Origin: Minisyncoccia bacterium
GTDB taxonomy: Bacteria; Patescibacteriota; Minisyncoccia; Phycocordibacterales; UBA1006
Assembly (NCBI GenBank): GCA_047629175.1
Contig: JBLHWN010000001.1
Location: 1-32,219 of the forward strand
Reading direction: 5' to 3'
DNA: 32,219 nucleotides
Part shown: positions 259 through 31,868 of the stretch, one piece after another
Position numbering within the stretch: position 1 is the stretch's first letter
Layout: every line of letters starts with the position of its first letter
Position numbers and translations under genes: made by a program
The notes under the pieces: generated by a model
Seen by the model: only the letters and a program-made list of their open reading frames with translations
Told to the model about the DNA's origin: nothing
The model's database searches: none

Positions 259-264
259 TATACT
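259..264 (+). promoter_or_regulatory. -10 box TATACT, 6 nt upstream of the smpB ATG (leaderless geometry)
   Basis: TATACT 259-264, spacer cctact, ATG 271. No SD in between. Confidence 0.45.
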
Positions 265-270
265 CCTACT

Positions 271-717
271 ATGAACTTGCTCGTAAACAAACAAGTAAAA
301 AGAAGTTATGAGATAATGGACACCTTTGAAGCAGGAGTAAAACTACAAGGTTGGGAGGTTAAATCCTTACGTCTTAAACATGGCTCAATCAAAGAAGCCT
401 ATATCACGGTTGACAATGAGGTATTTCTGATTGGTGCGCACTTCCCTCTGTTCCAAGCTGGCCACGCGCATCAGGAATCATTAGACCCTTATCAGAAACG
501 AAAGCTTCTTCTTTCAAGAAAACAAATAGAAGACCTCAAAGCTTCTCAAAAACGACAAGGGCTAACCGTAGTCCCAATGAGAATTTACGAAAAAGGGAAT
601 CTTATCAAAATTGAAATTGCGGTGGCTCGCGGTAAGAAATTGCATGACAAACGAAAGACCTTAAAAGATCGAACAAGTAAACGCGAGGTTGAACGAGCTA
701 TTAAAAATAATAATTAA
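271..717 (+). CDS. smpB: SsrA-binding protein SmpB
   Basis: FEAGVKLQGWEVKSLR and KRKLLL motifs, basic C-terminal tail, tmRNA gene immediately downstream. Start moved from 229 (GTG) to ATG 271 on the promoter geometry. Confidence 0.9.
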   Translation: MNLLVNKQVKRSYEIMDTFEAGVKLQGWEVKSLRLKHGSIKEAYITVDNEVFLIGAHFPLFQAGHAHQESLDPYQKRKLLLSRKQIEDLKASQKRQGLTVVPMRIYEKGNLIKIEIAVARGKKLHDKRKTLKDRTSKREVERAIKNNN

Positions 718-724
718 CACATAT

Positions 725-955
725 ATGAAAGAATTTAAATTAGGAAAATATAAACATCACAAAGGTAAGGAATACGAGGTTATTGGAATTGCAAAACACA
801 GCAAAACACTCAAAGATTTAGTCGTCTATAGAGCACTCCATAATTCTCCAGAATTTGGTGACAAAGCTCTTTGGGTACGTCCAATGAGCGCATTTACAGA
901 AAGTGTTTCGCTAGCCGGCAAAAAGGTTTCTCGTTTTACATATATTGAAAAGTAA
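725..955 (+). CDS. DUF1653-like small protein
   Basis: YKHHKGKEYEVIGIAKHSKTLKDLVVYRAL...LWVRPMSAF matches the DUF1653 pattern recalled from memory. ATG 725 chosen rather than the 689 overlap. Confidence 0.7.
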   Translation: MKEFKLGKYKHHKGKEYEVIGIAKHSKTLKDLVVYRALHNSPEFGDKALWVRPMSAFTESVSLAGKKVSRFTYIEK

Positions 956-1189
956 CTATTGTTACTTTTTTTATTTTAGCTTAGACTAGTAAGTAGATGC
1001 CTTTGCCTACCTCGTGATTCCTCCTCGGATTGGCCATTGCAAGCAAACAGTCCTCAAGGATTACGGAATGCTCTTGTGAGTATTTTTTTTTGGCATATCA
1101 TAGTAACTAACTCCCTTTGGTCTGATTCGCTTACGCTCATATAGACCATCCTTCGGAGCGGGCTGAAACTTCCCGCAGGGGAAGTTTCA

Positions 1190-1565
1190 GGGGATGACAG
1201 GCTTCGCTAGGAAGTTCGTTGTCTTCAAATTGCATATCGAGTTGGTAGTGAACTTGTAAAACGCTGCACTCCTTAACTGGAAAATCAATTGCTTCACCAT
1301 ACACGGTGAACACTCTAGCGCTCGCGTAACACACCTCGCGGCTAGTGCACCCTGCCCTACTGTTCAATACAGGTAACGGTGTATCATAAAATTTGATCTA
1401 GGAATATAGAGCTTTCTCCTCTATAAACTGAAACAAAGAAGAATCGAGGATTGATCGCTTTTGTCCTGCTTTTAGGTCATGACTCTAAACAAATTAAGTA
1501 AGACTATATATGTAGACGTTTGAAGGCTTCCTTCTTACACGGCGGTTCGAGTCCGCCCATCTCCA
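1190..1565 (+). ncRNA. ssrA: tmRNA (one-piece, standard order); CCA not encoded
   Basis: 5' GGGGATG (1190-1196) pairs with CATCTCC (1558-1564), including the G3-U70 wobble. GGCTTCGCT D-loop analogue. T-arm GGCGG-TTCGAGT-CCGCC (1541-1557), discriminator A 1565. Internal tag frame ends LALA-TAA. Sits next to smpB. Confidence 0.85.
1291..1329 (+). other. tmRNA tag-peptide reading frame (ASPYTVNTLALA-stop; possible earlier resume at GGA 1279 giving GKSIASPYTVNTLALA)
   Basis: In-frame GCT...CTA GCG CTC GCG TAA about 100 nt from the tmRNA 5' end. The hydrophobic LALA C-terminus is typical of degradation tags. The resume codon itself is not certain. Confidence 0.55.
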
Positions 1566-1569
1566 CAAA
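1548..1569 (+). repeat. 22-nt direct repeat, copy 1 (3' end of tmRNA)
   Basis: cgagtccgcccatctccacaaa, identical to 1735-1756. Confidence 0.95.
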
Positions 1570-1575
1570 ATTAAG

Positions 1576-3590: not shown

Positions 3591-6037
3591 CTTGTTTCCC
3601 AACCTGCTGCGATAAAGTCATCAAGTTTTTTCTTTTTAACTCGACGTACTTCTCCATTTTTCATTATCTCAACATTGTCGTCTTTTTTAGCTAAGACAGG
3701 AGTATCTGATTCACCTTGAGTTGCAGTAGCACTTTGCTTTCTAAGCTCAACATGAGCAAACAGTTCAGCAACCTTACTCGTAAATGCATCTCCCATCTCC
3801 TGATACAAACGTAATCCTTCTTTCTTGTACTCTACTAATGGATCACGTTGACCATAAGCACGAAGATTTACTGACTGACGTGTGTAGTCCATAACCTGCA
3901 AGTGTTGCATCCATAACATATCCGTAACATATAAAGTAATCCGCGTGAACAATTCTTGGTATTGTTTTAGATCAAGTTCTTCTTGTTTCTTTTTGATCAT
4001 TGCTGACCAATCCTCGTTCACCGTCAGAATATTTGTTTCAATTTCTTTGATGATTTTCATATCACCTGCAAGAATTTTTCCACGTCGATCATACACTGTA
4101 TCACGTTGGTATGACAAAACATTATCATAATCAAGAACTGATTTACGTCCATCAAAGTGAAATCCTTCTACCTTTTCTTGAGCTCCTTCGAGCTGCTTTG
4201 AAATCATTTTGTTTTGAATAGCTTCGTCATCTTTTAGACCAAGCTTAGAAACGATCGATTTTAGTCGATCACCTCCAAATATTTTCATAATTGGATCTTC
4301 AAGTGATACATAGAACTGCGTCTCTCCAGCGTCTCCCTGACGTCCAGCACGTCCACGTAGCTGGTCATCAATACGGCGAGCATCATGTCTTTCCGTACCT
4401 AACACGAACAAACCACCCAGGTCTTTGATCTCTTGTTCTTGTTCTGGTGTTGCTGGGTTCCCTCCTAACTTAATATCAACACCACGTCCTGCCATGTTCG
4501 TCGCAATAACTACTGATCCGGCCTTTCCGGCCTGAGCAATAATTTCTCCTTCGTTTTCATGATTCTTTGCATTCAACATTTGGTGACGAACTCCTGCCTG
4601 CATAAGATATGCTGATAACATTTCATTATTTTCTACAGACACCGTACCGATCAAAACAGGTTGTCCTTTGGCTTGTTTTTCTTTTACCTTTACTGCAATC
4701 GCTTTAAATTTTGCTTCTTCTGTTTGGTAAATTAAATCAATTTGATCTAAACGCTGGATTTCTCGATGCGTTGGAATAACCACTACATCCATGCCATATA
4801 CTTTTTGGAATTCTTCCTCGGATGACATACCTGTCCCTGTCATACCTGAGAGCTTTTTATAAAACTTGAAATAGTTCTGGTAGGTAATTGACGCCATTGT
4901 CTTTGATTCTTGCTGAATGGTTACACGTTCTTTTGCCTCAAGAGCCTGGTGCAATCCATCAGAATAACGACGTCCGTCTTGCAAGCGACCAGTAAACTGA
5001 TCAACAATAATTACTTCGTTCTTTTGTACAACATAATCACGATCTCGCAGGAATACAGACTGAGCACGCAAAGATGTCTCTAAATGGTGAACGAGTTTAA
5101 TATTTTCTTGGGTATAAATATTTTTAATCTTTAATGATTTTTCAGCCTTGTTGATCCCTTGATCAGTAATTGTCACAGCCCGTAGTTTTTCATCAACCTC
5201 GTAGTCTTCCCCTTTTACAAGAGATTTTGCAATGGTGTTCATTGCGGCATAAATATCACCTGCATTATCTGCAGCTGTCGAAAGGATCAATGGTACGCGC
5301 GCCTCATCAATTAAAATTGAATCTACCTCATCAATAACGACATAGTTGTGCCCACGTTGAACGACTTGTTCTGGTCGTTGCGCGGTATTATCCCGCAAGT
5401 AATCAAAACCAAATTGGTTATTAGTACCGTACGTAATATCAGCCTCATATGCTGATTTTCGTTTTGTTGGTTTCAGGAATTCATAAAAGATTCTAAATGA
5501 ACCAAGCTCATCACGCTCTTCATCAACCTCCTGATGACCCGGATCGTACATAAATGATTGCTCTTTGTCGTTAATAATTCCAATTGAAAGACCATGGAAA
5601 GCGAAAACTTGACCCATCCATTGTGCATCACGTCGTGCCAAGTAATCGTTTACCGTCACAACATGGACCCCTTTTTCTGTTAAGGCATTTAGGTATGTAG
5701 GTAAGGTTGAAACTAATGTCTTTCCTTCCCCAGTTCTCATTTCAGTAATAAGACCTTCGTGAAGCATTATCCCTCCCATTAATTGAACATCATAATGCCG
5801 TTGACTAAGCGTTCGGACTGCTGTTTCTCGAACAACGGCAAAAGCCTCAGGAAGAATCTCATCAAGAGTTTCTCCTTGTGTTAGGCGATCTTTAAATTCC
5901 TGTGTTTTATCTTTTAGATGTTCATCAGATAGCGCTTCTATTTCTGACTCTAGAGCATTGATTTTTTCAACTGTTTTTTGAACGTTTTTTAGCTTCTTTT
6001 GGTTCTCGTCTCCAAACATTTTCTTCAATAATTTCAT
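3581..6037 (-). CDS. secA: preprotein translocase ATPase SecA
   Basis: 818 aa. MRTGEGKTL Walker A, VIDEVDSILIDEARVPLI, TNMAGRGVDI motifs and SecA-type N-terminus. Confidence 0.95.
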   Translation of the reverse strand: MKLLKKMFGDENQKKLKNVQKTVEKINALESEIEALSDEHLKDKTQEFKDRLTQGETLDEILPEAFAVVRETAVRTLSQRHYDVQLMGGIMLHEGLITEMRTGEGKTLVSTLPTYLNALTEKGVHVVTVNDYLARRDAQWMGQVFAFHGLSIGIINDKEQSFMYDPGHQEVDEERDELGSFRIFYEFLKPTKRKSAYEADITYGTNNQFGFDYLRDNTAQRPEQVVQRGHNYVVIDEVDSILIDEARVPLILSTAADNAGDIYAAMNTIAKSLVKGEDYEVDEKLRAVTITDQGINKAEKSLKIKNIYTQENIKLVHHLETSLRAQSVFLRDRDYVVQKNEVIIVDQFTGRLQDGRRYSDGLHQALEAKERVTIQQESKTMASITYQNYFKFYKKLSGMTGTGMSSEEEFQKVYGMDVVVIPTHREIQRLDQIDLIYQTEEAKFKAIAVKVKEKQAKGQPVLIGTVSVENNEMLSAYLMQAGVRHQMLNAKNHENEGEIIAQAGKAGSVVIATNMAGRGVDIKLGGNPATPEQEQEIKDLGGLFVLGTERHDARRIDDQLRGRAGRQGDAGETQFYVSLEDPIMKIFGGDRLKSIVSKLGLKDDEAIQNKMISKQLEGAQEKVEGFHFDGRKSVLDYDNVLSYQRDTVYDRRGKILAGDMKIIKEIETNILTVNEDWSAMIKKKQEELDLKQYQELFTRITLYVTDMLWMQHLQVMDYTRQSVNLRAYGQRDPLVEYKKEGLRLYQEMGDAFTSKVAELFAHVELRKQSATATQGESDTPVLAKKDDNVEIMKNGEVRRVKKKKLDDFIAAGWETRKK

Positions 6038-6044
6038 ACAATCG

Positions 6045-6053
6045 ATTTTACCA
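6045..6053 (-). promoter_or_regulatory. extended -10 TGgTAAAAT, 7 nt upstream of the secA ATG
   Basis: Minus strand reads tatggtaaaat-cgattgt-ATG(6037). Confidence 0.5.
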
Positions 6054-6343: not shown

Positions 6344-6826
6344 CTATGCTTCAATTTTTTCTTCAACGGGAGTTTCCTCGGCTGCTGGTGCTTCTTCTGT
6401 TTCAGTAACTTCTTCGATTACTGAAGCCTCTTCTACTGGTGCTTCTTCAGTTGTGTCTTCAACTACTGGTGCTTCTTTGGCTACATCAGCTTTTGGTTTA
6501 GATACTGGTGCCTTGACTTCTGGTTCTTCATCTGGTGCATTTCGTTTTTTTGTTGGTGACTTCTTAGGGAGAACGTTTTTCTTTCGTCCTTCTATAAGAC
6601 CTTTTGTTACCAACATATTGAATACGGTGTCAGAAGGTTGTACCCCTTTTGAAAGCCAATCTTTTGCTGCAGCTTCATCCAAAGTAACTGTTCCCATTTT
6701 TGGGTTGTATGATCCTAAAATATCAACATACCGGTGTGATTTAGGGCCTTTTGTTTTTTCAATAACGACAATTTTGAAGTGTGCTTCATTTCGTCGTCCT
6801 ACTCGTTGTAATCTCATCATTAACAT
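6344..6826 (-). CDS. rpsP: 30S ribosomal protein S16 with long acidic C-terminal extension
   Basis: MLMMRLQRVGRRNEAHFKIVV...GSYNP is an S16 core of about 80 aa, followed by about 75 aa of K/P then E/A/P/V-rich low complexity. Confidence 0.9.
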   Translation of the reverse strand: MLMMRLQRVGRRNEAHFKIVVIEKTKGPKSHRYVDILGSYNPKMGTVTLDEAAAKDWLSKGVQPSDTVFNMLVTKGLIEGRKKNVLPKKSPTKKRNAPDEEPEVKAPVSKPKADVAKEAPVVEDTTEEAPVEEASVIEEVTETEEAPAAEETPVEEKIEA

Positions 6827-6835
6827 ATGCGCCTG

Positions 6836-6863
6836 ATACTATCAAAATAATAGCTTTTGGCAA
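6836..6863 (-). promoter_or_regulatory. rpsP promoter: TTGCCA - 16 nt - TGaTAGTAT, 9 nt upstream of the ATG
   Basis: Minus strand reads TTGCCA(6863-6858) ... tgaTAGTAT(6841-6836) caggcgcat ATG(6826). Confidence 0.55.
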
Positions 6864-6892
6864 GAAAATATAATATGCCTTTATCTATTGCG

Positions 6893-6901
6893 TGTTATAC
6901 T
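6893..6901 (+). promoter_or_regulatory. extended -10 TGtTATACT, 6 nt upstream of ATG 6908
   Basis: cgTGtTATACT-caggtc-ATG. Confidence 0.55.
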
Positions 6902-6907
6902 CAGGTC

Positions 6908-8860
6908 ATGAACAACACAGATAGTTTTGAAGGAGTATATTCTCTTGGGAAGAACGGAATTGCATACATTAGAAATAAGGAAACAGGAGACGCCATAGAA
7001 GTTCCGTCACATCTCCACATGACGGCATTACACAGAGATATCGTCCGCGTACGTATTACTGATAGTAAAAAAAATGAAGGAGAAATTATTGAAATCGTAA
7101 AACGATCCCAGCAAGGATTCGTTGGGACCCTAAAAGCGCACGGTGATCATTTTGTTCTTGTGCCAGATAATTTTAAGATTCCTGATATTACTATCCCAAG
7201 GAATAGCGTGGGTAATGGGAAAATTGGAAACAAGACTTTTGTAGAAATTGAACAGTATGAACCTCGATTGGTTGGGGTTGTTAACAAAGACCTTGGTAAG
7301 CCAGATTCTAACGATGCTCACATGCATGGAATTGCCCTTGAGCAAGGATTTGACTATGCCTTCCCTGCTGATGTTGAAGCTGAAGCAGATGCATTAGAGG
7401 CAAAAGGTATCACTGATGAAGAACGCACAACCAGGCGTGACATGAGAGATACCTTAACCTTTACTATTGATCCAGCTGACGCAAAAGATTTTGATGATGC
7501 TCTTTCCTTTAAGAAAATGGACAATGGAAACTATGAGATTGGTATTCATATTGCTGATGTATCTCATTATGTACAACCTGGAACCGCACTTGATCGCGAA
7601 GCTCAGAAACGCACAACATCCGTATACCTGGTAGATCGAACAATTCCAATGTTACCAGAAGGTTTGTCTAACGGATTATGTTCATTAAGGCAAGATGAAG
7701 AAAAACTAGCGTATTCTGCTATATTTGAAATTGAACCAACCACAGGAGACGTTAAAGATGAATGGTTTGGACGTACCATCATTAACTCAAATAAGCGTTT
7801 TACCTACGAAGAAGCACAAGACATCCTGGACAAAAAAGAAGGTCTGTACGTTGATGAACTTTTAGAATTCAACCGTATCTCAAAGATCTATACAAAGAAT
7901 CGTTACGAACAAGGAGCGTTGAATTTTGAAACTCACGAAGTAAAATTTATTCTTGATGAAAAAGGAGTTCCTGTCAGCGTAAAGGTAAAAGAACGAATTG
8001 ATACCAATAAACTTATCGAAGAGTTTATGCTCTTGGCTAATAATCGTGTATCAGGTTTTATGGAAAAATCTCTTTTCTTTATCTATCGAGTCCATGGGAA
8101 ACCTGAACTTGATCGAATGGAAAAACTACAAGAATTCTTGAAACTACTCAGTTATAATACTCAACTTGTCGACGGAATGATTCCTGTAAAAGAATTACAA
8201 CGTATTATTCGAGAAGCTGAAGGCACACCTGAATACGATACGCTTCAAACCGTTATTGTGCGTTCAATGCAAAAGGCTGTCTATACAACCAATAACATTG
8301 GTCACTTTGGATTAGCATTTAAACACTATAGTCACTTTACTTCACCGATTAGACGCTATCCTGACGTATTGGCACATCGACTCATTCAACAAAAACTTGA
8401 TGGTGCTGAGCATGATCAAGACCAAGAATGGTATGAAACAATGTGTGGTCACAGCTCACAACAAGAACAACGCGCTGTAACTGCTGAGCGTAATTCTATT
8501 AAACTAAAACAAGTTGAATATATGAGCACCAAAGACGTCAACCATATTTTTGAGGGTGTTGTTACGGGTGCTGGAAAATTTGGTGTCTTCGTCGCAGAAG
8601 AAGAATCACGATCAGAAGGAATGATTCGCCTCTTTGACCTTGGGAATGATATGTGGGAATTCCAAGAAAAATCTGGAATTATCATAGGTAAAAGAACCAT
8701 GAAAACGTTCAAGATTGGAGACAAGATCCAACTAAAAATTAAACGTGTAGACATTGCAAAGCGATTAATTGATTACGTATTAGTAGTTGACGGCAAGTCT
8801 CAAGCGGCTCCTCCACGTAAACCAAGAGATCATCGGAGAAAACCTCAAATAAAGAAGTAG
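6908..8860 (+). CDS. rnr: ribonuclease R (RNB-family 3'-5' exoribonuclease, C-terminal S1 domain)
   Basis: DPADAKDFDDALS, SVYLVDRTIPMLP, HFGLAFKHYSHFTSPIRRYPD motifs, S1-like FEGVVTGAGKFGVFV and a basic tail. Start set to 6908 on promoter geometry; the ORF is open from 6857. Confidence 0.9.
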   Translation: MNNTDSFEGVYSLGKNGIAYIRNKETGDAIEVPSHLHMTALHRDIVRVRITDSKKNEGEIIEIVKRSQQGFVGTLKAHGDHFVLVPDNFKIPDITIPRNSVGNGKIGNKTFVEIEQYEPRLVGVVNKDLGKPDSNDAHMHGIALEQGFDYAFPADVEAEADALEAKGITDEERTTRRDMRDTLTFTIDPADAKDFDDALSFKKMDNGNYEIGIHIADVSHYVQPGTALDREAQKRTTSVYLVDRTIPMLPEGLSNGLCSLRQDEEKLAYSAIFEIEPTTGDVKDEWFGRTIINSNKRFTYEEAQDILDKKEGLYVDELLEFNRISKIYTKNRYEQGALNFETHEVKFILDEKGVPVSVKVKERIDTNKLIEEFMLLANNRVSGFMEKSLFFIYRVHGKPELDRMEKLQEFLKLLSYNTQLVDGMIPVKELQRIIREAEGTPEYDTLQTVIVRSMQKAVYTTNNIGHFGLAFKHYSHFTSPIRRYPDVLAHRLIQQKLDGAEHDQDQEWYETMCGHSSQQEQRAVTAERNSIKLKQVEYMSTKDVNHIFEGVVTGAGKFGVFVAEEESRSEGMIRLFDLGNDMWEFQEKSGIIIGKRTMKTFKIGDKIQLKIKRVDIAKRLIDYVLVVDGKSQAAPPRKPRDHRRKPQIKK

Positions 8861-8861: not shown

Positions 8862-8889
8862 TTGACATCTAATCTTGGACTGTTATAAC
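8862..8889 (+). promoter_or_regulatory. TTGACA - 16 nt - TGtTATAAC promoter, 9 nt upstream of ATG 8899
   Basis: Perfect -35 at 8862-8867 and -10 at 8884-8889. Confidence 0.6.
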
Positions 8890-8898
8890 ATATATTAT

Positions 8899-12139: not shown

Positions 12140-12157
12140 GCTGAGTTAATTAATCGT

Positions 12158-12166
12158 ATTGTATCA
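12158..12166 (-). promoter_or_regulatory. extended -10 TGaTACAAT (leadered, 18 nt to the smc ATG)
   Basis: Minus strand reads atatgatacaat-N18-ATG(12139). Confidence 0.45.
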
Positions 12167-12918: not shown

Positions 12919-12922
12919 ACCA

Positions 12923-14032: not shown

Positions 14033-14040
14033 AGATATTT

Positions 14041-14046
14041 ATTATA
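14041..14046 (-). promoter_or_regulatory. -10 TATAAT, 8 nt upstream of ATG 14032
   Basis: Minus strand reads acgtTATAAT-aaatatct-ATG, just after the rpmF terminator. Confidence 0.5.
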
Positions 14047-14050
14047 ACGT

Positions 14051-14282: not shown

Positions 14283-14291
14283 AATGAATCT

Positions 14292-14319
14292 AGTATACGG
14301 ATGAACGTTATTTTGGCAA
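14292..14319 (-). promoter_or_regulatory. rpmF promoter TTGCCA - 16 nt - TATACT, 9 nt upstream of the ATG
   Basis: Minus strand reads TTGCCA(14319-14314) ... TATACT(14297-14292) agattcatt ATG(14282). Confidence 0.55.
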
Positions 14320-15119: not shown

Positions 15120-15121
15120 GT

Positions 15122-15652: not shown

Positions 15653-15659
15653 ACCTATG

Positions 15660-15706: not shown

Positions 15707-15712
15707 CAAGAC

Positions 15713-19654: not shown

Positions 19655-19661
19655 ATTTAAT

Positions 19662-19667
19662 ATCATA
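19662..19667 (-). promoter_or_regulatory. -10 TATGAT, 7 nt upstream of ATG 19654
   Basis: Minus strand reads TATGAT-attaaat-ATG. Confidence 0.35.
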
Positions 19668-19696
19668 CACTATTTTGCCAAATCCATATGAAAGGC

Positions 19697-19702
19697 TACA
19701 AT
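19697..19702 (+). promoter_or_regulatory. -10 TACAAT, 7 nt upstream of the thrS ATG
   Basis: ggcTACAAT-agtacct-ATG(19710). Confidence 0.5.
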
Positions 19703-19709
19703 AGTACCT

Positions 19710-22749: not shown

Positions 22750-22756
22750 AATATAT

Positions 22757-22765
22757 ATAATAGCA
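22757..22765 (-). promoter_or_regulatory. extended -10 TGcTATTAT, 7 nt upstream of ATG 22749
   Basis: Minus strand reads atgcTATTAT-atatatt-ATG. Confidence 0.4.
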
Positions 22766-22875: not shown

Positions 22876-23631
22876 TTATATCTCTAAGAACAATGGAGCA
22901 TGGTCTGAGACTTCTTCCGGTAAAACATAAAATTCTTTAACTTCCAACTCACGACTTACAAAAGTATAATCTGCAAAACGACTTTCTTTCTTGTAATATG
23001 AAGTTCGTGTATCAGTTATGTTGTATTCTTTGATAAGATTTTTTAATGGATAATCATCAATCATCTTAATACTTTTAGTATCAGGATTTAAATTAAAATC
23101 CCCGGTTAATATTATTTTTCTATTAATCTTTGTATCCATAAATTCAATTAGCTTTTTTGATTGATCAATACGATCAGAACTATCGTCTTTTCCCTTACCT
23201 TTTTCCCATAATCCATGAAGGTTAATTAATGTATATTCTTTTCTATCATCACTAAAGTCTACCCATTGAATAGTTCTTCGAAACCATGTATCGTAATCAA
23301 CATACTGTTGCTGAGCATCAGATATAATCAGTTCACCTGATGCTGTAATATTTCTATAAATTTCTTTCTTCACAAAAATAGCATTTCCCCACCAGCGACC
23401 AAGTGTTGGTGAAAAAAATCCATGATGGTTTACCAAAATATCTTGAACTGAACGAAATAAATACGGATCTCCAGCTGGAGGGTTTGAACCTGTAATATCT
23501 AAACCAAATTTAGTTCCATCTAAATCAACCTCTTGGAGGCAGAATATATCTACATACTTATATTGATAAAAAAAATCATATATACTACTCCCAGCTCTCC
23601 CACACCAAGTATTTAGGCTAATTACTTTCAT
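22876..23631 (-). CDS. endonuclease/exonuclease/phosphatase (EEP, DNase I-like) family protein
   Basis: MKVISLNTW...FCLQEV N-terminal motif, GDFN and C-terminal SDHAPL. Confidence 0.8.
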   Translation of the reverse strand: MKVISLNTWCGRAGSSIYDFFYQYKYVDIFCLQEVDLDGTKFGLDITGSNPPAGDPYLFRSVQDILVNHHGFFSPTLGRWWGNAIFVKKEIYRNITASGELIISDAQQQYVDYDTWFRRTIQWVDFSDDRKEYTLINLHGLWEKGKGKDDSSDRIDQSKKLIEFMDTKINRKIILTGDFNLNPDTKSIKMIDDYPLKNLIKEYNITDTRTSYYKKESRFADYTFVSRELEVKEFYVLPEEVSDHAPLFLEI

Positions 23632-23637
23632 AAACGT

Positions 23638-23646
23638 ATCTTATCA
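23638..23646 (-). promoter_or_regulatory. extended -10 TGaTAAGAT, 6 nt upstream of ATG 23631
   Basis: Minus strand reads gtgtgaTAAGAT-acgttt-ATG. Confidence 0.5.
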
Positions 23647-23678
23647 CACTAGAAAGGTTTATTATTTTTTATTTTGTG

Positions 23679-23684
23679 TATACT
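23679..23684 (+). promoter_or_regulatory. -10 TATACT, 9 nt upstream of ATG 23694
   Basis: gtgTATACT-atctacatt-ATG. Confidence 0.45.
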
Positions 23685-23693
23685 ATCTACATT

Positions 23694-23831
23694 ATGGGAA
23701 AACGAAAAAACAGTGTGGGAAACATGAAGCAAACACGATCTCACAAGACAACAAAACGATTAGCAGTAAAAAAGGAAATGCTCGCTGTTGCAGCAACGCG
23801 ACCAAATAGCCGTCACTACGCTGGTAAATAG
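23694..23831 (+). CDS. 45-aa highly basic small protein (not in the ORF track)
   Basis: MGKRKNSVGNMKQTRSHKTTKRLAVKKEMLAVAATRPNSRHYAGK. Sits precisely between a -10 box and a strong terminator. Confidence 0.45.
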   Translation: MGKRKNSVGNMKQTRSHKTTKRLAVKKEMLAVAATRPNSRHYAGK

Positions 23832-23875: not shown

Positions 23876-24358
23876 TTATTGGTTAGAATATTTCCTAAAT
23901 ATCTGTAATGCCGTCATAGCTCCCTCGTTCCAAATTAGTTCTTTTGAATCTAACATACCTTGAAACTCATTTTGACTCAGCCATTTACGGTCAGTGATAA
24001 TATCTGTATCAGGATTTTCTGGAGGATGTTCCATTAGTTTTGGATTCTCAGCAACAAAACAATGAATACCTCTCATTCCAAAAATCTTTTCAGTTGAATG
24101 AAAGTGGTAGAGGTTTTCAGATTGCATTCCCATCTCTTCTGCTAGCTCTTCATGGGCATGAGTGAGGTTATCTTTGTCTTGTTTATCAATACCGCCACTA
24201 ATAAATTTCCAAAAGGATCGATCATAATGATGTATAAATTCTTCAATGACTAACATTTTGTTTTCCTGAGTGTCGTACGGAAAAATTAAAACGATATCTC
24301 GCAAAGGCTTTTTTTTGCAGAACCGTTTACATAATTTCTTTTTTAGTTTTTGTATCAT
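23876..24358 (-). CDS. Nudix-family hydrolase (divergent Nudix box)
   Basis: GGIDKQDKDNLTHAHEELAEEMGM resembles GX5EX7REUXEEXGU, with His in place of Arg and the first Glu not obvious. Confidence 0.6.
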   Translation of the reverse strand: MIQKLKKKLCKRFCKKKPLRDIVLIFPYDTQENKMLVIEEFIHHYDRSFWKFISGGIDKQDKDNLTHAHEELAEEMGMQSENLYHFHSTEKIFGMRGIHCFVAENPKLMEHPPENPDTDIITDRKWLSQNEFQGMLDSKELIWNEGAMTALQIFRKYSNQ

Positions 24359-24364
24359 AGATGA

Positions 24365-24373
24365 ATACTATCA
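24365..24373 (-). promoter_or_regulatory. extended -10 TGaTAGTAT, 6 nt upstream of ATG 24358
   Basis: Minus strand reads ctatgaTAGTAT-tcatct-ATG. Confidence 0.5.
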
Positions 24374-24969: not shown

Positions 24970-27051
24970 TTAAATATCAATCTCAACGAGTTTTGCATTG
25001 TTCTGAATAAATGCCTTACGAGGAGCAACATCTGCCCCCATCAAGGTATCAAAGATTTGATCAGCCTCCATAGCATCATCAACGGTTACTTGCTTTAATG
25101 TTCGCGTTTCAGGATCCATAGTTGTTTCCCATAATTCCTCTGCGTTCATTTCTCCCAGTCCTTTATATCGTTGAAGGTGAACTTTTCCTGACTTCTTTTT
25201 CTTAGTTTCTTTTCCTTCGTCCTCCCCATCAACAGCATCTTCTTCGTCATCTGATTCATCAGGAACATCTTGTTCAACACCAAGCTCCTTCAAAATAGCA
25301 TTTTTCTCATCTTCATAATACGCATAATGAAGTGATTTCCCTTTTTTGATTTTGTACAAAGGTGGTTGAGCAATATACAGATATCCTAAATCAATCATCT
25401 CTCGGAAATAACGGAAGAAGAACGTCATCAAAAGGATTCGAATATGAGCTCCATCGACATCCGCATCCGTCGCGATAACAATTTTCTTGTAACGTATTTT
25501 TTCGATATCAAAGGTTTCTCCAATTGAAGTACCAAACGCGATCACCATTGACTTGATTTCATTGTTTCCAAGCATACGATCTAAACGAACACGCTCTACG
25601 TTCAATGGTTTACCTCGTAGTGGCAAAATAGCCTGTGTTCTTCGATCACGTCCTTGTTTAGCAGTACCTCCCGCAGAATCTCCCTCAACAATAAAGATCT
25701 CAGCTTCATCAGCATTTTTGGTCTGACAGTCAGTTAGCTTACCGGGTAAGGTAAACCCTTCTAGAGCTCCTTTACGAAGAATCGAATCTTTGGCTGCCTT
25801 TGCTGCCTTTCGTGCCTTCAGAGCCAGTGCTGCCTTCCGTAGAATAGATTTCGCGTCATCAGGGTTCTCTTCTAGGAAATTAGAGAATGATTCAGCAAAG
25901 ATTGATTCCACAGCTCCGCGCGCCTCAGGTGAACCAAGTTTGTCTTTGGTTTGCCCTTCGAATTGAATCTCTTTCATTTTTACCGAAACAACAGAGGTAA
26001 TTCCTTCAAGAACATCATCACCTGTGAGTGCTCCATCTTTTTCAGAAAGAATTTTATTCTTTTTGTTGTATACATTCAAGAGACGTGTAAGTGCCGTCTT
26101 GAATCCAGTAATATGCATTCCTCCTCCTGGCGTTGAAATGTTGTTAGCAAACGGAACAATACGAGGTGAAATATCATTTACATATTGCAATGCAACTTCT
26201 ACGTGGATTCCATCCTCAGTTTCTTTTTCAACATGGAATATGTTCTTATGTACTGGTTTTTGGTGAGCGTTTAAATAGCGCACCATAGATACAATTCCGC
26301 CCTCAAAGTAGAAACTTTGTGATGGGACCTGCATATTCAGGTCTCCAAGATAATAGGTATCTTCTAAATCAATGTCTCCTGTATACTCTCGTGCATCAAT
26401 CAATGAAACACGAAGATTCTTTACAAGATATGCTTGTTGTTGGTAGTGCTTGATAATACGTTCCCAATTCCATTTTACCTCTTCGAAGATAGTTACGTCA
26501 GGCTGGAAGGTAATAACCGTTCCATTATGTTTTGTCTTTCCAAATTTCTTTACATCCTTTTTTGGTTTTCCAATTGAATACTCTTGGAAATATTTATCAC
26601 CATCCTTGTGTACTTCTGCTCGAGTATAAGTAGAAAGTGCGTTTACTACAGAAGCTCCAACTCCATGCAAACCTCCAGAGAATTTATAAGCTTCGTTATC
26701 GAACTTACCTCCAGCATGAAGGACCGTCATAATAACCTCCAGGGCTGACTTACCAGTTTTAGCATGTTTTCCAACTGGAATACCACGTCCATTATCAGCC
26801 ACTCGGACAATATTATCAGGTAATAATGTAATTTCGATATGATCACAAAAACCTCCCATCGCCTCATCACGGGAGTTATCAAAAACCTCGCGGATCAAGT
26901 GATGTAGACCATCAGGACCTGTTGATCCGATGTACATTCCAGGACGTTTTCGTACTGGTTCTAATCCTTCTAGGACAGAAATATCGCTCGCACTATATTC
27001 ATTTTTTGCTGCTGGTTTTTTAGTATCTTTTTTAGTCGTTTTTTTAGTCAT
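24970..27051 (-). CDS. gyrB: DNA gyrase subunit B
   Basis: LEGLEPVRKRPGMYIGS, HHLIREVFDNSRDEA, EGDSAGG, QRYKGLGEMN. Confidence 0.95.
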   Translation of the reverse strand: MTKKTTKKDTKKPAAKNEYSASDISVLEGLEPVRKRPGMYIGSTGPDGLHHLIREVFDNSRDEAMGGFCDHIEITLLPDNIVRVADNGRGIPVGKHAKTGKSALEVIMTVLHAGGKFDNEAYKFSGGLHGVGASVVNALSTYTRAEVHKDGDKYFQEYSIGKPKKDVKKFGKTKHNGTVITFQPDVTIFEEVKWNWERIIKHYQQQAYLVKNLRVSLIDAREYTGDIDLEDTYYLGDLNMQVPSQSFYFEGGIVSMVRYLNAHQKPVHKNIFHVEKETEDGIHVEVALQYVNDISPRIVPFANNISTPGGGMHITGFKTALTRLLNVYNKKNKILSEKDGALTGDDVLEGITSVVSVKMKEIQFEGQTKDKLGSPEARGAVESIFAESFSNFLEENPDDAKSILRKAALALKARKAAKAAKDSILRKGALEGFTLPGKLTDCQTKNADEAEIFIVEGDSAGGTAKQGRDRRTQAILPLRGKPLNVERVRLDRMLGNNEIKSMVIAFGTSIGETFDIEKIRYKKIVIATDADVDGAHIRILLMTFFFRYFREMIDLGYLYIAQPPLYKIKKGKSLHYAYYEDEKNAILKELGVEQDVPDESDDEEDAVDGEDEGKETKKKKSGKVHLQRYKGLGEMNAEELWETTMDPETRTLKQVTVDDAMEADQIFDTLMGADVAPRKAFIQNNAKLVEIDI

Positions 27052-27075
27052 AATTTATTTATTGTTGACGAAGAT

Positions 27076-27115
27076 GTTCCAGTAATGTGCCCTGTGTATC
27101 TGGCACATTTGGAAC
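27076..27115. promoter_or_regulatory. imperfect 13-bp inverted repeat in the gyrB/ung divergent region
   Basis: GTTCCA-gta-ATGTGCC-N10-GGCACAT-t-TGGAAC. Confidence 0.4.
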
Positions 27116-27226
27116 TAAATTCAAAATATAATCTGCGATTATTTTCTCATTTATTTTGCCATAATATTATAATTGCATTGTAGCATACTTTAGGTCTTAC
27201 GGGCTTATAAAATAGGCTTTTAAGTG

Positions 27227-27235
27227 TGGTATATT
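27227..27235 (+). promoter_or_regulatory. extended -10 TGgTATATT, 6 nt upstream of ATG 27242
   Basis: gtgtggTATATT-aaagaa-ATG. Confidence 0.5.
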
Positions 27236-27241
27236 AAAGAA

Positions 27242-27907
27242 ATGAGGCTATATATGCAAAATGAATGGAAAGAGGTTTTAAGCGGCTATTTTGCTTCTAC
27301 ACAATGGTCTCAATTATGTGGTTTTGTTCAGAAAGAATATCAAACAAAAACTATATACCCTGAACAAAAAGATATATTTAACGCTTTCAATGCAACTTCT
27401 TTTGGTAAAACAAATGTTGTAATAATAGGGCAAGACCCTTATCATAATCCTGACCAAGCACATGGGTTATGTTTTTCAGTTCCGGATAATATTACTCCCC
27501 CACCATCACTTAAAAATATCTACAAAGAAATTTTATTTGATTGTGGTATTGAAAAAGATGTCACTAATGGAGATCTAACAAACTGGGCGGAACAAGGGGT
27601 ACTCCTTTTGAATTCAGTTCTTACTGTTGAAAAAAATATACCAGGAAGTCATGCTAAAAAAGGATGGGAAGAATTTACGAGCGAAGTCATTAAAAAAATT
27701 TCAGAAGGAAGGAACCATGTAGTCTTTTTCTTATGGGGTAATTATGCAAAACAAAAAGGTGCTGCCATTGACCGCTCGCGTCATCTCGTCCTTGAATCTC
27801 CTCATCCTTCGCCGTTCTCTGCCTATACTGGTTTTTTTGGTAGCAGACATTTCTCTCAAACAAACGACTATCTTAAAAGACATGGAAAAACCAGCATTCA
27901 ATGGTAA
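27242..27907 (+). CDS. ung: uracil-DNA glycosylase, family 1
   Basis: GQDPYH and HPSPFSA motifs. Start 27242 comes from the promoter geometry. ATG 27254 is an alternative, with GAGG 6 nt upstream. Confidence 0.9.
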   Translation: MRLYMQNEWKEVLSGYFASTQWSQLCGFVQKEYQTKTIYPEQKDIFNAFNATSFGKTNVVIIGQDPYHNPDQAHGLCFSVPDNITPPPSLKNIYKEILFDCGIEKDVTNGDLTNWAEQGVLLLNSVLTVEKNIPGSHAKKGWEEFTSEVIKKISEGRNHVVFFLWGNYAKQKGAAIDRSRHLVLESPHPSPFSAYTGFFGSRHFSQTNDYLKRHGKTSIQW

Positions 27908-27910
27908 CCT
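27902..27910 (+). promoter_or_regulatory. possible extended -10 TGgTAACCT, 6 nt upstream of the pyk ATG (overlaps the ung stop)
   Basis: aaTGgTAACCT-tgttat-ATG(27917). Confidence 0.3.
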
Positions 27911-27916
27911 TGTTAT

Positions 27917-29335
27917 ATGAAACAAATACAACAGAAGAAGACAAAGATTGTGGCGACGATGGGACCCGTCACGCGAAATAAAAAAACATTAAGCGCAATG
28001 GCACATGCCGGACTCAATGTTGCTCGTATGAATTTCAGTCACGGCACACACGAAGACCATCTTCATACTTTTAATTTGGTTCGCTCTGTTGAAAAATCTA
28101 CAAAGAAACCATTGGCAATATTACAAGACCTATCTGGACCTAAAATTCGTGTCGGAAAAGTCGAAGAAGGAACGATGCTGATACATGGAGCAAAATTTAT
28201 ACTAACAACTACGAAATGCGTAGGTGACGACAAGCAAGCATTTGTAAATTATAAAAAACTTCCTATTGAGGTTTCAAAAGGATCAACGATTAAAGTTGAT
28301 GATGGGAAACTCGAATTATTTGTAGATAAAATTTCCGGGAATAATATTCACTGTACGATAATTGTTGGAGGGCCACTTTCATCAAACAAGGGTGTTAACC
28401 TTCCTGATACGATCCTTTCTATTTCATCACTCACAGCGAAAGATAAAAAGGATGTTCTCTTTGGCATTAAACATGATGTTGATTATATTGCACTCTCCTT
28501 TGTACAAACAGCTAATGATGTGAGAGATCTTCGAAGAATTCTTGATAAACACCAAAGCAAGGCAAAAATTATTGCTAAAATTGAAACAACCCCAGCTGTG
28601 GAAAATATTGATGCGATCTTATCAGTCTCAGATGGGGCCATGGTTGCCCGTGGTGATATGGCCGTTGAAGTTGGTGTAGAGAGAGTTCCATTAATTCAAA
28701 AAATGATTATTGAAAAATGTAATCAATTAGGTAAACCAGTTATTACAGCGACGCAAATGCTTGATTCAATGGAGAAATCTCCGGTTCCAACACGAGCCGA
28801 AGTATCTGATATTGCGAACGCTATTCTAGATGGTACTGATGCGATTATGCTCTCTGGTGAATCAGCAGTAGGTCAGTATCCTGTTGAGTCAGTACAAACA
28901 ATGACCAATATTGCACAGCGAACTGAGTCACACTGTGCGAACAAAAATCTAAAATACTTTGGACAATCTAAAGAAATTGTTGATACCATGTCTATCTCAG
29001 TAGTACGAATTGCAAATAATGTGCGAGCCCGACTTATCGTCACACTAACTGAATCAGGACTTACGCCACATATGATTGCTCGATTTAAACCTCACCATGG
29101 AATTATCGCAATTACGCCTAAACGGAGAACTTTTAATCAGTTACAACTCTTATACGGGTGTAAACCTGTCTTGTCAGATATGTCAGGTGGCATTACAAAA
29201 CTGACCAAAGAAATTCAACAGTTGGTCAAAAAAAATCAATGGGCGGATGCAGGTGAAAAATTGGTAGTAAGTATGGGTTCAAAATTTGGGGTCCCAGGAT
29301 CAACTGATACTATTTTTGTTATTGAAGCAAAATAA
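27917..29335 (+). CDS. pyk: pyruvate kinase
   Basis: KTKIVATMGP, MNFSHG, MVARGDMAVE and TQMLDSM motifs. Confidence 0.9.
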   Translation: MKQIQQKKTKIVATMGPVTRNKKTLSAMAHAGLNVARMNFSHGTHEDHLHTFNLVRSVEKSTKKPLAILQDLSGPKIRVGKVEEGTMLIHGAKFILTTTKCVGDDKQAFVNYKKLPIEVSKGSTIKVDDGKLELFVDKISGNNIHCTIIVGGPLSSNKGVNLPDTILSISSLTAKDKKDVLFGIKHDVDYIALSFVQTANDVRDLRRILDKHQSKAKIIAKIETTPAVENIDAILSVSDGAMVARGDMAVEVGVERVPLIQKMIIEKCNQLGKPVITATQMLDSMEKSPVPTRAEVSDIANAILDGTDAIMLSGESAVGQYPVESVQTMTNIAQRTESHCANKNLKYFGQSKEIVDTMSISVVRIANNVRARLIVTLTESGLTPHMIARFKPHHGIIAITPKRRTFNQLQLLYGCKPVLSDMSGGITKLTKEIQQLVKKNQWADAGEKLVVSMGSKFGVPGSTDTIFVIEAK

Positions 29336-29354
29336 AAACGCATTATGCGTTTTT
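29334..29354. terminator. bidirectional terminator, variant of the cgcat-atgcg family; both convergent stop codons lie inside it
   Basis: aaaaacgcat-t-atgcgttttt. pyk TAA at 29333-29335, methyltransferase stop at 29343-29345. Confidence 0.75.
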
Positions 29355-30035
29355 ATTTTTTACATAACAATTCCAATAATTCCGTTTATATGACTGTGCT
29401 CCCCACCGCTGATAACCAGTCTTTCTTTCCATGCGAACAACTTCGAGATGTTTATTATAGAGTTCCTTAAAATCTGGACCAGAGAAAATTCGTTCGGTGA
29501 CGCCTAGTTGTGGATGCTTATACGTATCATAACCTGGACCCGGAAATTCTTTTACCATTTTTTGTGCATTCTTGTCTCCTTCTCTTGCTAATGTTCGTAC
29601 ATACATATAACCCGTTGGTTTTAACACACGTTCACATTCTTTTAAATAGGTACCTCGTTCAGATTCACTTAATGCATTCGACGTTGTTACATCCAAAATA
29701 ATATCAACTGAATCATCATCAAGAGGAAATGGTTTTCCAACATTCCGTGTCTCAAATCTCACTAATTCGTGCCCGTGAATTTTCTTTGCTTTCTCAATAG
29801 CATCAGAGGAAAAATCCCATCCATAAACTTTTGCATCATAATGATCAGCCATATAAAAACTGTTTCTTCCTACCCCACACCCAAGATCCAAAACAGTGAT
29901 TCCAGAATACAGATCTATATGCTTATTATTTTTAATCCACTTAATAAATCGGAGGAAATCTTTCTGCGGTTTATGTGACTGGGTAACGAGTTGTGGTTTT
30001 TGATATTCTTGATCCCATGATTGCTGATTATTCAT
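29343..30035 (-). CDS. class I SAM-dependent methyltransferase
   Basis: Motif I VLDLGCGVGRN and post-I acidic residue. Start set to ATG 30035 (MNNQQSW) on the -10 spacing; the ORF is open from GTG 30059. Confidence 0.75.
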   Translation of the reverse strand: MNNQQSWDQEYQKPQLVTQSHKPQKDFLRFIKWIKNNKHIDLYSGITVLDLGCGVGRNSFYMADHYDAKVYGWDFSSDAIEKAKKIHGHELVRFETRNVGKPFPLDDDSVDIILDVTTSNALSESERGTYLKECERVLKPTGYMYVRTLAREGDKNAQKMVKEFPGPGYDTYKHPQLGVTERIFSGPDFKELYNKHLEVVRMERKTGYQRWGAQSYKRNYWNCYVKNKNA

Positions 30036-30041
30036 AATGTC

Positions 30042-30047
30042 ACTATA
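30042..30047 (-). promoter_or_regulatory. -10 TATAGT, 6 nt upstream of ATG 30035
   Basis: Minus strand reads ggggTATAGT-gacatt-ATG. Confidence 0.45.
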
Positions 30048-30120
30048 CCCCAGGAGCACTTCTAGACAAATAGTATCTACTTTTTAGAAACTAGATAAAA
30101 GACCTGGTGAGTAAATTATG

Positions 30121-30126
30121 TATACT
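30121..30126 (+). promoter_or_regulatory. -10 TATACT, 8 nt upstream of ATG 30135
   Basis: atgTATACT-tcatatat-ATG. Confidence 0.45.
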
Positions 30127-30134
30127 TCATATAT

Positions 30135-31868
30135 ATGAATACGCTAAAAAATTATATTAAAAACCACAAAGATATATTGGGTCTTGCACTTCTTTTTGCA
30201 GCAATAAACCAATTTTTTTCTCTTCTCAATCCACAAGTATTTCGTATTGTTATTGATACCTATGCCTCAAATTTTCAGAATTATGCGCAGAATGAATTTG
30301 TTATGGGGGTTGGGTTAATGTTGCTTCTTTATATTGGTGTAGCTCTTGTGTCTCGAGCAGGAAAAGCTTTTCAGGATTATTATGTAAACGTGCTCTCAGA
30401 GCGTGTTGGGACGGGTATGTACAATAATTCAGTTGCTCATGTTTTTTCTCTCCCCTTTGCTGTATTTGAAGATGAACAATCAGGAAGCATTCTGCAGAAA
30501 CTTCAAAAAGCGCGTGATCATGCAAAGAAACTTATTATCAATATCGTTAATATTGGATTCTTTTCACTTATCGGAATGATTTTTGTAATTAGTTATGCCT
30601 TTAGTGTTCACTGGTGGATTGGTTTAGTTTTCGTATTATCAATCCCTGTTGTTGGAGGTATTATCTATTTTACCGGTAAAAATATTAAAGAAGCACAGCA
30701 AAAAATTGTTAGTAAGTCAGCTGACCTTGCTGCCTCGACAACTGAAACATTACAAAATGTTGGTCTGGTTAAATCGCTTGGCTTAGAAGGCCAAGAAATT
30801 AGACGATTAAATAATGTACATACGGAAATTCTTGAATTGGAATTAAGAAAAGTCATTATTTTGCGGAAACTCAGCTTCATACAAGGAACATTAATAAACA
30901 CCATCAGTACCCTCATTGTGTTTGTTTCCATGGTCCTCATTTTTCAAGGATCAATTACCCTTGGTGAATTTCTTGCGCTTTGGTTTTATGGGTTCTTTGT
31001 GTTTGGTCCCCTGGGACAAGTTGCTGATCTTGTACAAAGCTATCAGGAAACAAAAGCGAGTGTTGGTGAATTAGAGTTGATTCTTAACCAAGAAGAGGAA
31101 GATACAAATTTAAACATGGAGAGCATAAGTAACATTAATAGTATTGTTTTCAATAATGTTACGTTTGCTTATCAACATAGCCATATATCAGCTCTGAGTA
31201 ACATTTCACTCTCTATTAGTTCTGGTCAAACTATTGCATTAGCTGGGCCAAGTGGCTCTGGTAAGTCCACCTTTCTCAAGCTCCTTCTTGGTCTCTATAC
31301 GCCAACAAGTGGTGAGATTTTATATAATAAACATTCCTTATCAACAATTGACGTGAAGAGTCTGCGAAATAATGTTGGCTATGTACCCCAAGAAAGCCAA
31401 GTCTTTGCTGGAACCGTTCGAGAGAATTTATTATTTGTACAACCTGATGCAACTGATGCTGAATGTTTTGCTGCACTATCCCAAGCACAGGCTGATACCA
31501 TAATAGAAAGAACGAGAAATGGTCTTGATAGTGTTATTGGTGAAAATGGTATCAAACTTTCTGGTGGTGAACGTCAACGTATTGCTATTGCGCGCGCCTT
31601 ATTACGTCAGCCCGATATTCTTATTTTTGATGAAGCTACCTCTAGTCTCGACTCACTGACCGAGCGAGAAATCACCGATACCATTCAAAATATTAAGAAA
31701 CAACATCCAGAATTAATTATGATAATCGTAGCTCATCGTTTATCAACTATTGAACATGCTGACACCATCTATGTCATACGTAAGGGTATCCTTGTTGAAT
31801 CAGGAACACATGCTGATTTGGTTAGTAAAAAAGAACTCTACTATTCATTATGGAATGAACAACAATAA
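30135..31868 (+). CDS. ABC exporter, fused permease/ATPase (MsbA/MdlB-like)
   Basis: Six-TM N-terminal domain, Walker A GPSGSGKST, signature LSGGERQR, Walker B ILIFDEATS. Confidence 0.9.
   Translation: MNTLKNYIKNHKDILGLALLFAAINQFFSLLNPQVFRIVIDTYASNFQNYAQNEFVMGVGLMLLLYIGVALVSRAGKAFQDYYVNVLSERVGTGMYNNSVAHVFSLPFAVFEDEQSGSILQKLQKARDHAKKLIINIVNIGFFSLIGMIFVISYAFSVHWWIGLVFVLSIPVVGGIIYFTGKNIKEAQQKIVSKSADLAASTTETLQNVGLVKSLGLEGQEIRRLNNVHTEILELELRKVIILRKLSFIQGTLINTISTLIVFVSMVLIFQGSITLGEFLALWFYGFFVFGPLGQVADLVQSYQETKASVGELELILNQEEEDTNLNMESISNINSIVFNNVTFAYQHSHISALSNISLSISSGQTIALAGPSGSGKSTFLKLLLGLYTPTSGEILYNKHSLSTIDVKSLRNNVGYVPQESQVFAGTVRENLLFVQPDATDAECFAALSQAQADTIIERTRNGLDSVIGENGIKLSGGERQRIAIARALLRQPDILIFDEATSSLDSLTEREITDTIQNIKKQHPELIMIIVAHRLSTIEHADTIYVIRKGILVESGTHADLVSKKELYYSLWNEQQ

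Follow-up and report, generated by a model that had tools for sequence, protein, structure and literature searches.

Most transcription units in the 32.2-kb stretch of DNA analysed here (the window), which comes from an ultrasmall member of the Patescibacteria, also termed the Candidate Phyla Radiation or CPR, are preceded by a TAnnnT hexamer placed only 6–9 nt before the start codon. We consider it very probable that the majority of these boxes function as promoters and would give mRNAs with leaders of 0–3 nt; the positions of the transcription starts and the mode of ribosome recruitment are what we infer. A preliminary description of the window had put forward that the boxes are −10 promoter elements adjoining the start codon, that they frequently carry an extended TGn, that no purine-rich Shine-Dalgarno (SD) sequence accompanies them, and that genes inside operons are instead coupled by short gaps. 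These proposals held up in the analysis reported below, and every computational test run agrees with the first of them. The organism is known from metagenome contigs only. Its ThrS homologs place it in the Parcubacteria/Paceibacteria as a Campbellbacteria-like lineage, with ‘Ca. Pacebacteria’ (90% identity) and ‘Ca. Campbellbacteria’ (81%) as the nearest named ThrS relatives.

We defined the box as the hexamer TAnnnT and the spacer as the number of nucleotides between the hexamer and the ATG, with a strict spacer range of 6–9. With curated starts, 18 of the 27 genes in the window have a box in this range, against 3.7 expected from the intergenic TAnnnT rate of 0.036 per position (binomial p = 3e-10). 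The spacer histogram of the 27 genes has 8, 6, 2, and 2 genes at spacers 6, 7, 8, and 9, and none at 3, 5, or 10. When a 4-nt interval was slid along the upstream positions, it caught 18 genes at 6–9, vs. 2–10 at non-overlapping offsets. Of all the ATG trinucleotides that the window contains, just 8% are preceded by a box, and all 26 box-adjacent starts found in the organism are ATG.

The boxes also have the character of promoters. The 6–7 nt (with a tail to 9) that separate them from the ATG equal the usual distance between a −10 element and the transcription start. The extended −10 motif TGn occurs at the boxes much more frequently than expected by chance, at 14 of 26 in this organism, and a G lies two positions ahead of the hexamer in 20 of 26. 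Over half of the boxes have either the extended TGn or a TTGNNN −35 element at 16–17 bp. The latter is frequent at boxes that lack TGn, and reads TTGCCA or TTGACA in front of rpmF, thrS, rpsP, ftsH, and orf169. Hairpin plus T-run terminators end directly at the boxes of secA, nusB, LDcluster4, and RNase J, and thus no space is left there for another promoter. The divergent gene pairs SNase/dnaE, dgkA/thrS, EEP/orf45, rpsP/rnr, and methyltransferase/ABC are separated by spacers of 55–100 bp, each of which holds two back-to-back boxes, one per ATG. Finally, the box distinguishes first genes from later ones: it is present at 24 of 34 unit starts vs. 1 of 8 tightly coupled internal cistrons of this organism (Fisher p = 0.004).

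An out-of-sample test was made on some 16 kb of DNA that flanks the window, taken from contigs belonging to this organism and unseen when the pattern was described. Here, 7 of 11 unit starts have a box at 6–9 (p = 1.7e-4), namely those of DHH, orf169 (TTGACA-17-TGaTAATAT), truB, orf91, LDcluster4, RNase J, and ftsH, and the CNNM gene has one at N10. No box was found at 6–9 before infC (which starts with TTG), csp, and the pilin operon, nor before any of the four flank internal cistrons rpmI, rplT, pilin, and orf116. The TTG of infC (L087 17609) is the only clear non-ATG start found, and there is no box adjacent to it. Expression of infC is autoregulated via its non-AUG start codon, and leaderless mRNAs need AUG. 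The boxless TTG start fits with both the known autoregulation and this AUG rule.

The pattern extends to relatives, for which we collected 80 loci around thrS from species representatives of GTDB with ThrS identities of 55–90%. Among 820 long open reading frames (ORFs) taken at their first ATG, TAnnnT occurs 109, 78, 53, and 73 times at spacers 6, 7, 8, and 9 vs. about 30 times elsewhere, and 215 of 593 unit-start ORFs have a box vs. 82 per control interval, with no sharp TAnnnT peak at the internal genes of these loci. The extended form TGnTAnnnT is more sharply placed, with 35, 22, 14, and 29 occurrences at spacers 6–9, 0 at 2–5, and about 2–3 elsewhere. TGn accompanies 43% of the focal boxes vs. 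12.6% of control hexamers and a −35 TTG accompanies 22% vs. 7%, and the hexamer has the invariant A2/T6 asymmetry that is typical of a −10 element. The arrangement is kept in orthologs even though the flanking DNA cannot be aligned: a box lies at 6–9 before 35 of 43 dnaE orthologs (27 of them with TGn) and 45 of 78 thrS orthologs, 5 of 6 dgkA orthologs have it at the equivalent ATG, and 40 of 45 rpmF orthologs keep TTGC..-16/17-TATAGT-N9-ATG. The excess of boxes falls with distance from the lineage of the window (38%, 26%, and 16% over three identity bins) and is still discernible in loci labelled Gracilibacteria or Peribacteria. In several of the more distant relatives (L013, L020, and L024), a conserved CGTTGAG(T/C)...ATAG(A/T)G stretch located 25–45 nt before the thrS ATG replaces the box; it could be either a leader element under conservation or the terminal part of an RNA gene lying upstream.

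Two replicons from other bacteria, scanned at their annotated starts, provided a rough calibration, given the small size of the plasmid samples. The AT-rich, SD-using Bacillus anthracis plasmid pXO1 has a box at 6–9 before 0 of 37 starts and an SD core at 4–10 nt before 21 of 37; Deinococcus radiodurans plasmid MP1, from a phylum rich in leaderless genes, has 6 of 41 and 15 of 41, respectively. The corresponding figures for the window are 18 of 27 and 0 of 27.

The absence of SD cores in the window is complete. GGAG, GAGG, and AGGA were not found 4–10 nt upstream of any of the 21 long ORFs scanned or, by eye, of any of the 27 starts, so no leadered or internal gene in the window has an SD-type ribosome-binding site. 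SD cores are rare in the relatives, where they precede 8% of the unit starts and 4% of the internal ones. No match to the conserved 1492 region of 16S rRNA was found in loci L001–L086, and there is no 16S gene in the window. Downstream cistrons in the window start 2–9 nt past the previous stop (715-727, 12916-12925, 15117-15124, and 27905-27919), and the gaps of 7, 4, and 2 nt before DUF1653, rnc, and rnhB (the last if the start is at 15119, the other candidate being 15140) agree with the coupling that had been proposed for them. Of 138 downstream cistrons in the relatives, 69 follow gaps of 1–8 nt, and another 13 overlap the preceding cistron by 4 nt. Such tight gaps without SD sequences suggest that these cistrons are coupled by termination-reinitiation.

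A minority of genes, namely gyrB, smc, csp, infC, and ORF176, have promoters like those of the boxed genes farther upstream, with A/U-rich, SD-free leaders. The predicted leader of gyrB is about 118 nt long and contains a hairpin (atgtgcc...ggcacat). The gyrB orthologs are mostly leadered, too, and keep tgcTATAAT about 28–32 nt upstream, with a conserved TTATTGATTATTT stretch after it; the gyrB leader may be regulatory. A weaker sequence context is shared by starts of every kind. In the relatives (L007–L086), T is found at −1 with a frequency of 0.49–0.60 in all start classes vs. 0.24 at random ATGs, and all classes, boxed or not and including internal starts, strongly avoid G and are A-rich from −3 to −6, notably at internal starts. 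This common context looks like a non-SD start-codon signature reminiscent of that in Bacteroidetes. A reading of the T at −1 as the mark of a Y(−1)R(+1) transcription start was considered and rejected, as the bias is equal at internal and box-less starts.

Several points weigh against reading the boxes as promoters of leaderless genes. Four starts (271, 6908, 15652, and 19654) had been picked with the help of the box, and we therefore redid the test on independent public (Prodigal-type) gene calls, among which 14 of 27 genes have a box (p = 2.6e-6). In-frame TAA and TAG stops can imitate TAnnnT at spacers 6 and 9; this artefact was excluded, as the peak stays with TAYnnT, with TGnTAnnnT, and at spacers 7–8. 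A generic sigma-70 two-hexamer scan of the window gave counts no higher than those in shuffled sequences (39 vs. 46.7 and 52 vs. 57.2). In AT-rich DNA a scan of this kind carries no information, and we did not count it as support; the argument is consequently built on where the hexamer lies, on its TGn extension, on the accompanying −35 elements, and on the context, and motif counts play no part in it. The instances before the Peptidase S11 gene and pyk are weak. In addition, boxes at N8–N9 imply leaders of 1–3 nt and are not strictly leaderless, and leaderless status as such is a prediction, with transcription starts deduced from sequence.

It is also conceivable, albeit improbable, that the boxes are genuine promoters brought near the ATG by the streamlining of intergenic space, and that the leaderless mRNA is a minor isoform beside read-through transcripts or alternative starts. 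The narrow divergent spacers would be in line with such crowding, as would the two boxes of rnr and the boxes of pyk and orf169, which lie inside the preceding gene. However, crowding predicts a broad range of distances, and those observed in the window are 6–9 nt only, with the gaps in the histogram at 3, 5, and 10 and, among the relatives, the lack of TGnTAnnnT at spacers 2–5. The conservation of the spacing in orthologs with non-alignable flanks and the terminators that precede several boxes are likewise at odds with it.

We give still less credence to TAnnnT being a non-SD translation signal, such as an A/U-rich landing site for the ribosome or bS1 within a longer 5′ untranslated region (UTR), similar to that of the group B genomes discussed later. 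Some non-SD mechanism is needed where SD cores are absent everywhere, and a translation context does exist at all starts, as described above. A translation signal would, however, be expected at internal cistrons as well, where the box is nearly absent in this organism and shows no sharp peak in the relatives. TGn and the −35 TTG co-occur with it at promoter spacing, several boxes adjoin terminators, and the A2/T6 asymmetry is that of a −10 element and goes beyond A/U richness. Moreover, in the leadered genes gyrB and smc, TGnTAnnnT lies at a distance from the ATG, close to which no box-like sequence is found. Chance, by way of AT-rich intergenic DNA (GC 34%) in which a generic promoter scan does not exceed shuffles, in-frame TAA or TAG with which several N6/N9 boxes begin, and the four starts chosen to suit the box, is hardly credible in view of the probabilities obtained with curated and independent starts, the much lower counts in control spacer intervals, the peak retained by the TAYnnT and TGnTAnnnT histograms, the success of the flank test, and the lack of boxes on the AT-rich pXO1.

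If the boxes are promoters that adjoin the start codon, they would be of the sigma-70/sigma-A type, mostly extended −10 elements (TGnTAnnnT) or −35/−10 pairs. RNA polymerase would start on the A of the ATG at N6–7 boxes and 1–3 nt earlier at N8–9 boxes, so that first cistrons would be expressed from leaderless or near-leaderless mRNAs without SD sequences. In characterised systems, the 5′-terminal AUG of leaderless mRNAs is bound largely by 70S ribosomes with fMet-tRNA and IF2. By analogy with Deinococcus, Mycobacterium, and Escherichia coli, translation from a 5′-terminal AUG would proceed in the same way here, and downstream cistrons would most likely be read by termination-reinitiation.

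The preliminary description had further proposed that the box selects among alternative starts, and this was borne out to differing degrees. Pfam model coordinates and ortholog alignments show that the box-adjacent ATGs are probably the real N-termini. For smpB (271), the Pfam SmpB model starts at residue 5 and one ortholog alignment agrees; for secA, position 1 of the SecA_DEAD model falls on residue 4. The SNase start at 15652 is backed by one ortholog alignment and by the promoter geometry, since no room would remain for a promoter if the ORF were longer, and the dgkA start at 19654 is backed by six orthologs. The starts of ung (27242) and the methyltransferase (30035) are the same as the public calls. 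The rnr start at 6908 is favoured and unproven: the public call is ATG 6875, directly abutting a second box (TATAAT, 6869-6874), and the ortholog in locus L016 has a like ‘TATAAT-ATG ... ATG’ layout with an N-terminus matching MNNTD, which is suggestive of a start at 6908 over 6875. Overall, about 4 of the 27 public gene calls in the window appear to have a wrong start.

The 19 boxes listed in the preliminary description are given in Table 1, together with leadered genes and operon junctions for contrast. All of them were found with the hexamer and spacer described, and two are less secure. TATAAC of the Peptidase S11 gene, the weakest fit among the instances, deviates from TAnnnT, and an overlapping TAACAT at N7 does match it. 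The pyk box is possibly coincidental; it includes the stop codon of ung, which ends 9 nt before pyk, and could be either an internal promoter or a chance occurrence.

Table 1. Boxes before start codons in the window, with two leadered genes and two operon junctions for contrast. N, number of nucleotides between the hexamer and the ATG; the position of the ATG follows.
Feature	Positions	Strand	Element and spacing	Remarks
smpB	256..273	+	gggTATACT, N6, ATG 271	
secA	6035..6053	-	TGgTAAAAT, N7, ATG 6037	Terminator-like hairpin + T-run directly upstream
rpsP	6824..6863	-	TTGCCA-16-TGaTAGTAT, N9, ATG 6826	
rnr	6893..6910	+	TGtTATACT, N6, ATG 6908	
Peptidase S11 (DD-carboxypeptidase)	8862..8901	+	TTGACA-16-TGtTATAAC, N9, ATG 8899	
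nusB-Nudix fusion	14030..14049	-	TATAAT, N8, ATG 14032	Terminator with 18-bp stem (14046-14085) runs up to the box
rpmF	14280..14319	-	TTGCCA-16-TATACT, N9, ATG 14282	
SNase	15650..15668	-	TGcTATACT, N7, ATG 15652	Back-to-back with dnaE promoter, 60-bp spacer
dnaE	15698..15715	+	TGgTATACT, N6, ATG 15713	
dgkA	19652..19670	-	gtgTATGAT, N7, ATG 19654	
thrS	19675..19712	+	TTGCCA-16-TACAAT, N7, ATG 19710	
424-aa orphan	22747..22765	-	TGcTATTAT, N7, ATG 22749	
EEP phosphatase/nuclease	23629..23646	-	TGaTAAGAT, N6, ATG 23631	
45-aa ORF, putative	23676..23696	+	gtgTATACT, N9, ATG 23694	
Nudix	24356..24373	-	TGaTAGTAT, N6, ATG 24358	
ung	27227..27244	+	TGgTATATT, N6, ATG 27242	
pyk	27902..27919	+	TGgTAACCT, N6, ATG 27917	
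methyltransferase	30033..30069	-	TTGTCT-16-TATAGT, N6, ATG 30035	
ABC exporter	30118..30137	+	TATACT, N8, ATG 30135	
smc (contrast)	12137..12166	-	TGaTACAAT 18 nt before ATG 12139	Predicted leader ~11 nt, no SD
gyrB (contrast)	27049..27185	-	TGcTACAAT (27177-27185) 125 nt before ATG 27051	No SD
smpB to DUF1653 junction	715..727	+	7-nt gap, no box	No SD
nusB-Nudix to rnc junction	12916..12925	-	gap of 4 nt, without a box at 6-9	No SD

The window has a GC content of about 37% and contains about 27 protein genes and one transfer-messenger RNA (tmRNA) gene. Gene identities are based on Pfam matches, either run here or precomputed on identical public metagenome contigs. By this means we identified smpB, DUF1653, secA, rpsP, rnr, Peptidase S11, smc, and rnc; the NusB-Nudix fusion, rpmF, rnhB, SNase, dnaE, dgkA, and thrS; and the genes for the EEP phosphatase, a Nudix protein, a methyltransferase, and an ABC exporter, along with gyrB, ung, and pyk. 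The smpB and DUF1653 genes form a same-strand cluster with the tmRNA gene (1190-1568) at window positions 229-1568 (+). The rpsP product (6344-6826, -) has 160 aa, with the S16 domain confined to residues 8–65 and followed by a C-terminal extension that is about 95 aa long; a long ORF opposite rpsP (6258-6836) is probably spurious. The gene at 12923-14032 (-) encodes a three-part fusion of NusB (residues 8–136), NUDIX (188–281), and a Rho_N/SAP-like tail (335–364), and tblastn matches to the NusB-Nudix fusion were found in 44 of the 80 related loci.

The acidic 424-aa orphan (21475-22749, -) has a good TGcTATTAT N7 promoter in front, no Pfam match, and no tblastn match among the 80 related loci. 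The EEP gene (22876-23631, -) is called with a length of 251 aa in the window, as it is in part of the contigs, and with 186 aa in further contigs from this population (L001 and L087 were compared), which points to strain-level variation or a frameshift. A strong TATACT box, at N9 or N7, stands before each of two small ORFs, one of 45 aa (window 23694-23831, +) and the other of 43 aa (L087 12307-12438, -). Small proteins, or non-coding transcripts, that escape gene callers may be picked up by the promoter rule.

The expression mode proposed here is of a known kind; what sets the present case apart is its occurrence in a CPR lineage, for which our searches gave no earlier report, and its combination with the complete lack of SD cores. 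Its closest counterpart is in Deinococcus-Thermus, where TANNNT adjacent to ORFs was shown experimentally to be a −10 element, acts as the promoter of leaderless mRNAs, and precedes about 30% of ORFs (Zhong et al., 2025, PMC12340547). As in our window, the TAnnnT element there lies a few base pairs before the start codon with constrained spacing, is strengthened as a promoter by a −35 element, and helps to fix mis-annotated starts. In Deinococcus deserti, 167 of 262 mapped genes are leaderless (de Groot et al., 2014), a share comparable to the 24 of 34 boxed unit starts in our organism. The differences are that the latter belongs to another phylum, has an AT-rich genome, and makes prominent use of the extended −10 TGn. 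Furthermore, the remaining genes of Deinococcus have a clear GGAG ribosome-binding motif, reflected in the SD cores on MP1, which is missing from the window, and function in Deinococcus is experimentally proven, whereas here it is predicted from sequence.

Among the genome classes of GeneMarkS-2, group C has a Pribnow box 6–8 nt from the starts of first genes and includes 90% of Actinobacteria and 97% of Deinococcus-Thermus; its predicted leaderless fractions are 25–50%, and its other genes use SD-type ribosome-binding sites (Lomsadze et al., 2018, PMC6028130). As in group C, the box in our organism marks the first genes of operons and is lacking at internal genes. Unlike in group C, about 70% of unit starts are boxed, and no SD is seen. 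The lack of SD-type sites at the other genes is therefore a departure from classical group C and no argument against leaderless expression. In Bacteroidetes-type group B, one motif precedes all genes and hence cannot be a promoter (PMC6028130). Our organism resembles group B in having no SD and an A-rich context before starts, here at internal and leadered genes, and differs in that the dominant motif is a promoter element confined to unit starts, the common context being weak. It also differs from archaeal group D, in which the box lies about 26 nt upstream: no hexamer enrichment was found at spacers 20–30 in the window, and the tmRNA, smpB, and sigma-70-type promoters are bacterial. Other leaderless systems suited for comparison are those covered by the survey of Zheng et al. 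(2011, PMC3160421) and the Mycobacterium tuberculosis transcriptome (Cortes et al., 2013).

As for the CPR, a search of the main text of Lomsadze et al. (2018, PMC6028130) found neither Parcubacteria nor candidate phyla; a preprint on the TM7x transcriptome (bioRxiv 10.1101/2022.03.25.485537) mentions no promoters, UTRs, or transcription starts; and our full-text literature searches gave no paper that connects leaderless mRNAs with a group of the CPR. Only 48% of the 16S genes from Parcubacteria have a detectable anti-SD CCTCCT, the pattern overlapping a subgroup that lacks uL1, and bS21 is frequently missing (Tsurumaki et al., 2022, PMC9297842). That study covers rRNA and ribosomal proteins, not mRNA 5′ regions, and leaves translation start open (PMC9297842). 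The loss of the anti-SD in Parcubacteria (PMC9297842) agrees with the SD-free starts found here in the same broad lineage.

Taken further, the data raise the possibility, which we put forward tentatively, that the Campbellbacteria-like lineage and much of the Paceibacteria/Parcubacteria have wholly abandoned SD pairing in favour of leaderless first cistrons and reinitiated downstream cistrons. A promoter placed at the AUG by default would supply the missing account of translation start in CPR bacteria, given their reduced ribosomes, and the abandonment of SD pairing, if true, would explain how about half of the Parcubacteria could lose the anti-SD. The CPR would then be a third major bacterial lineage dominated by leaderless expression, with a leaderless share at least that of Deinococcus. 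The CPR makes up a large share of bacterial diversity, and such a finding would bear on the debate over leaderless initiation as the ancestral mode. In practice, the box would offer a simple rule to correct start codons in thousands of CPR metagenome-assembled genomes, as well as rules for designing expression constructs for those few CPR bacteria that can be cultivated.

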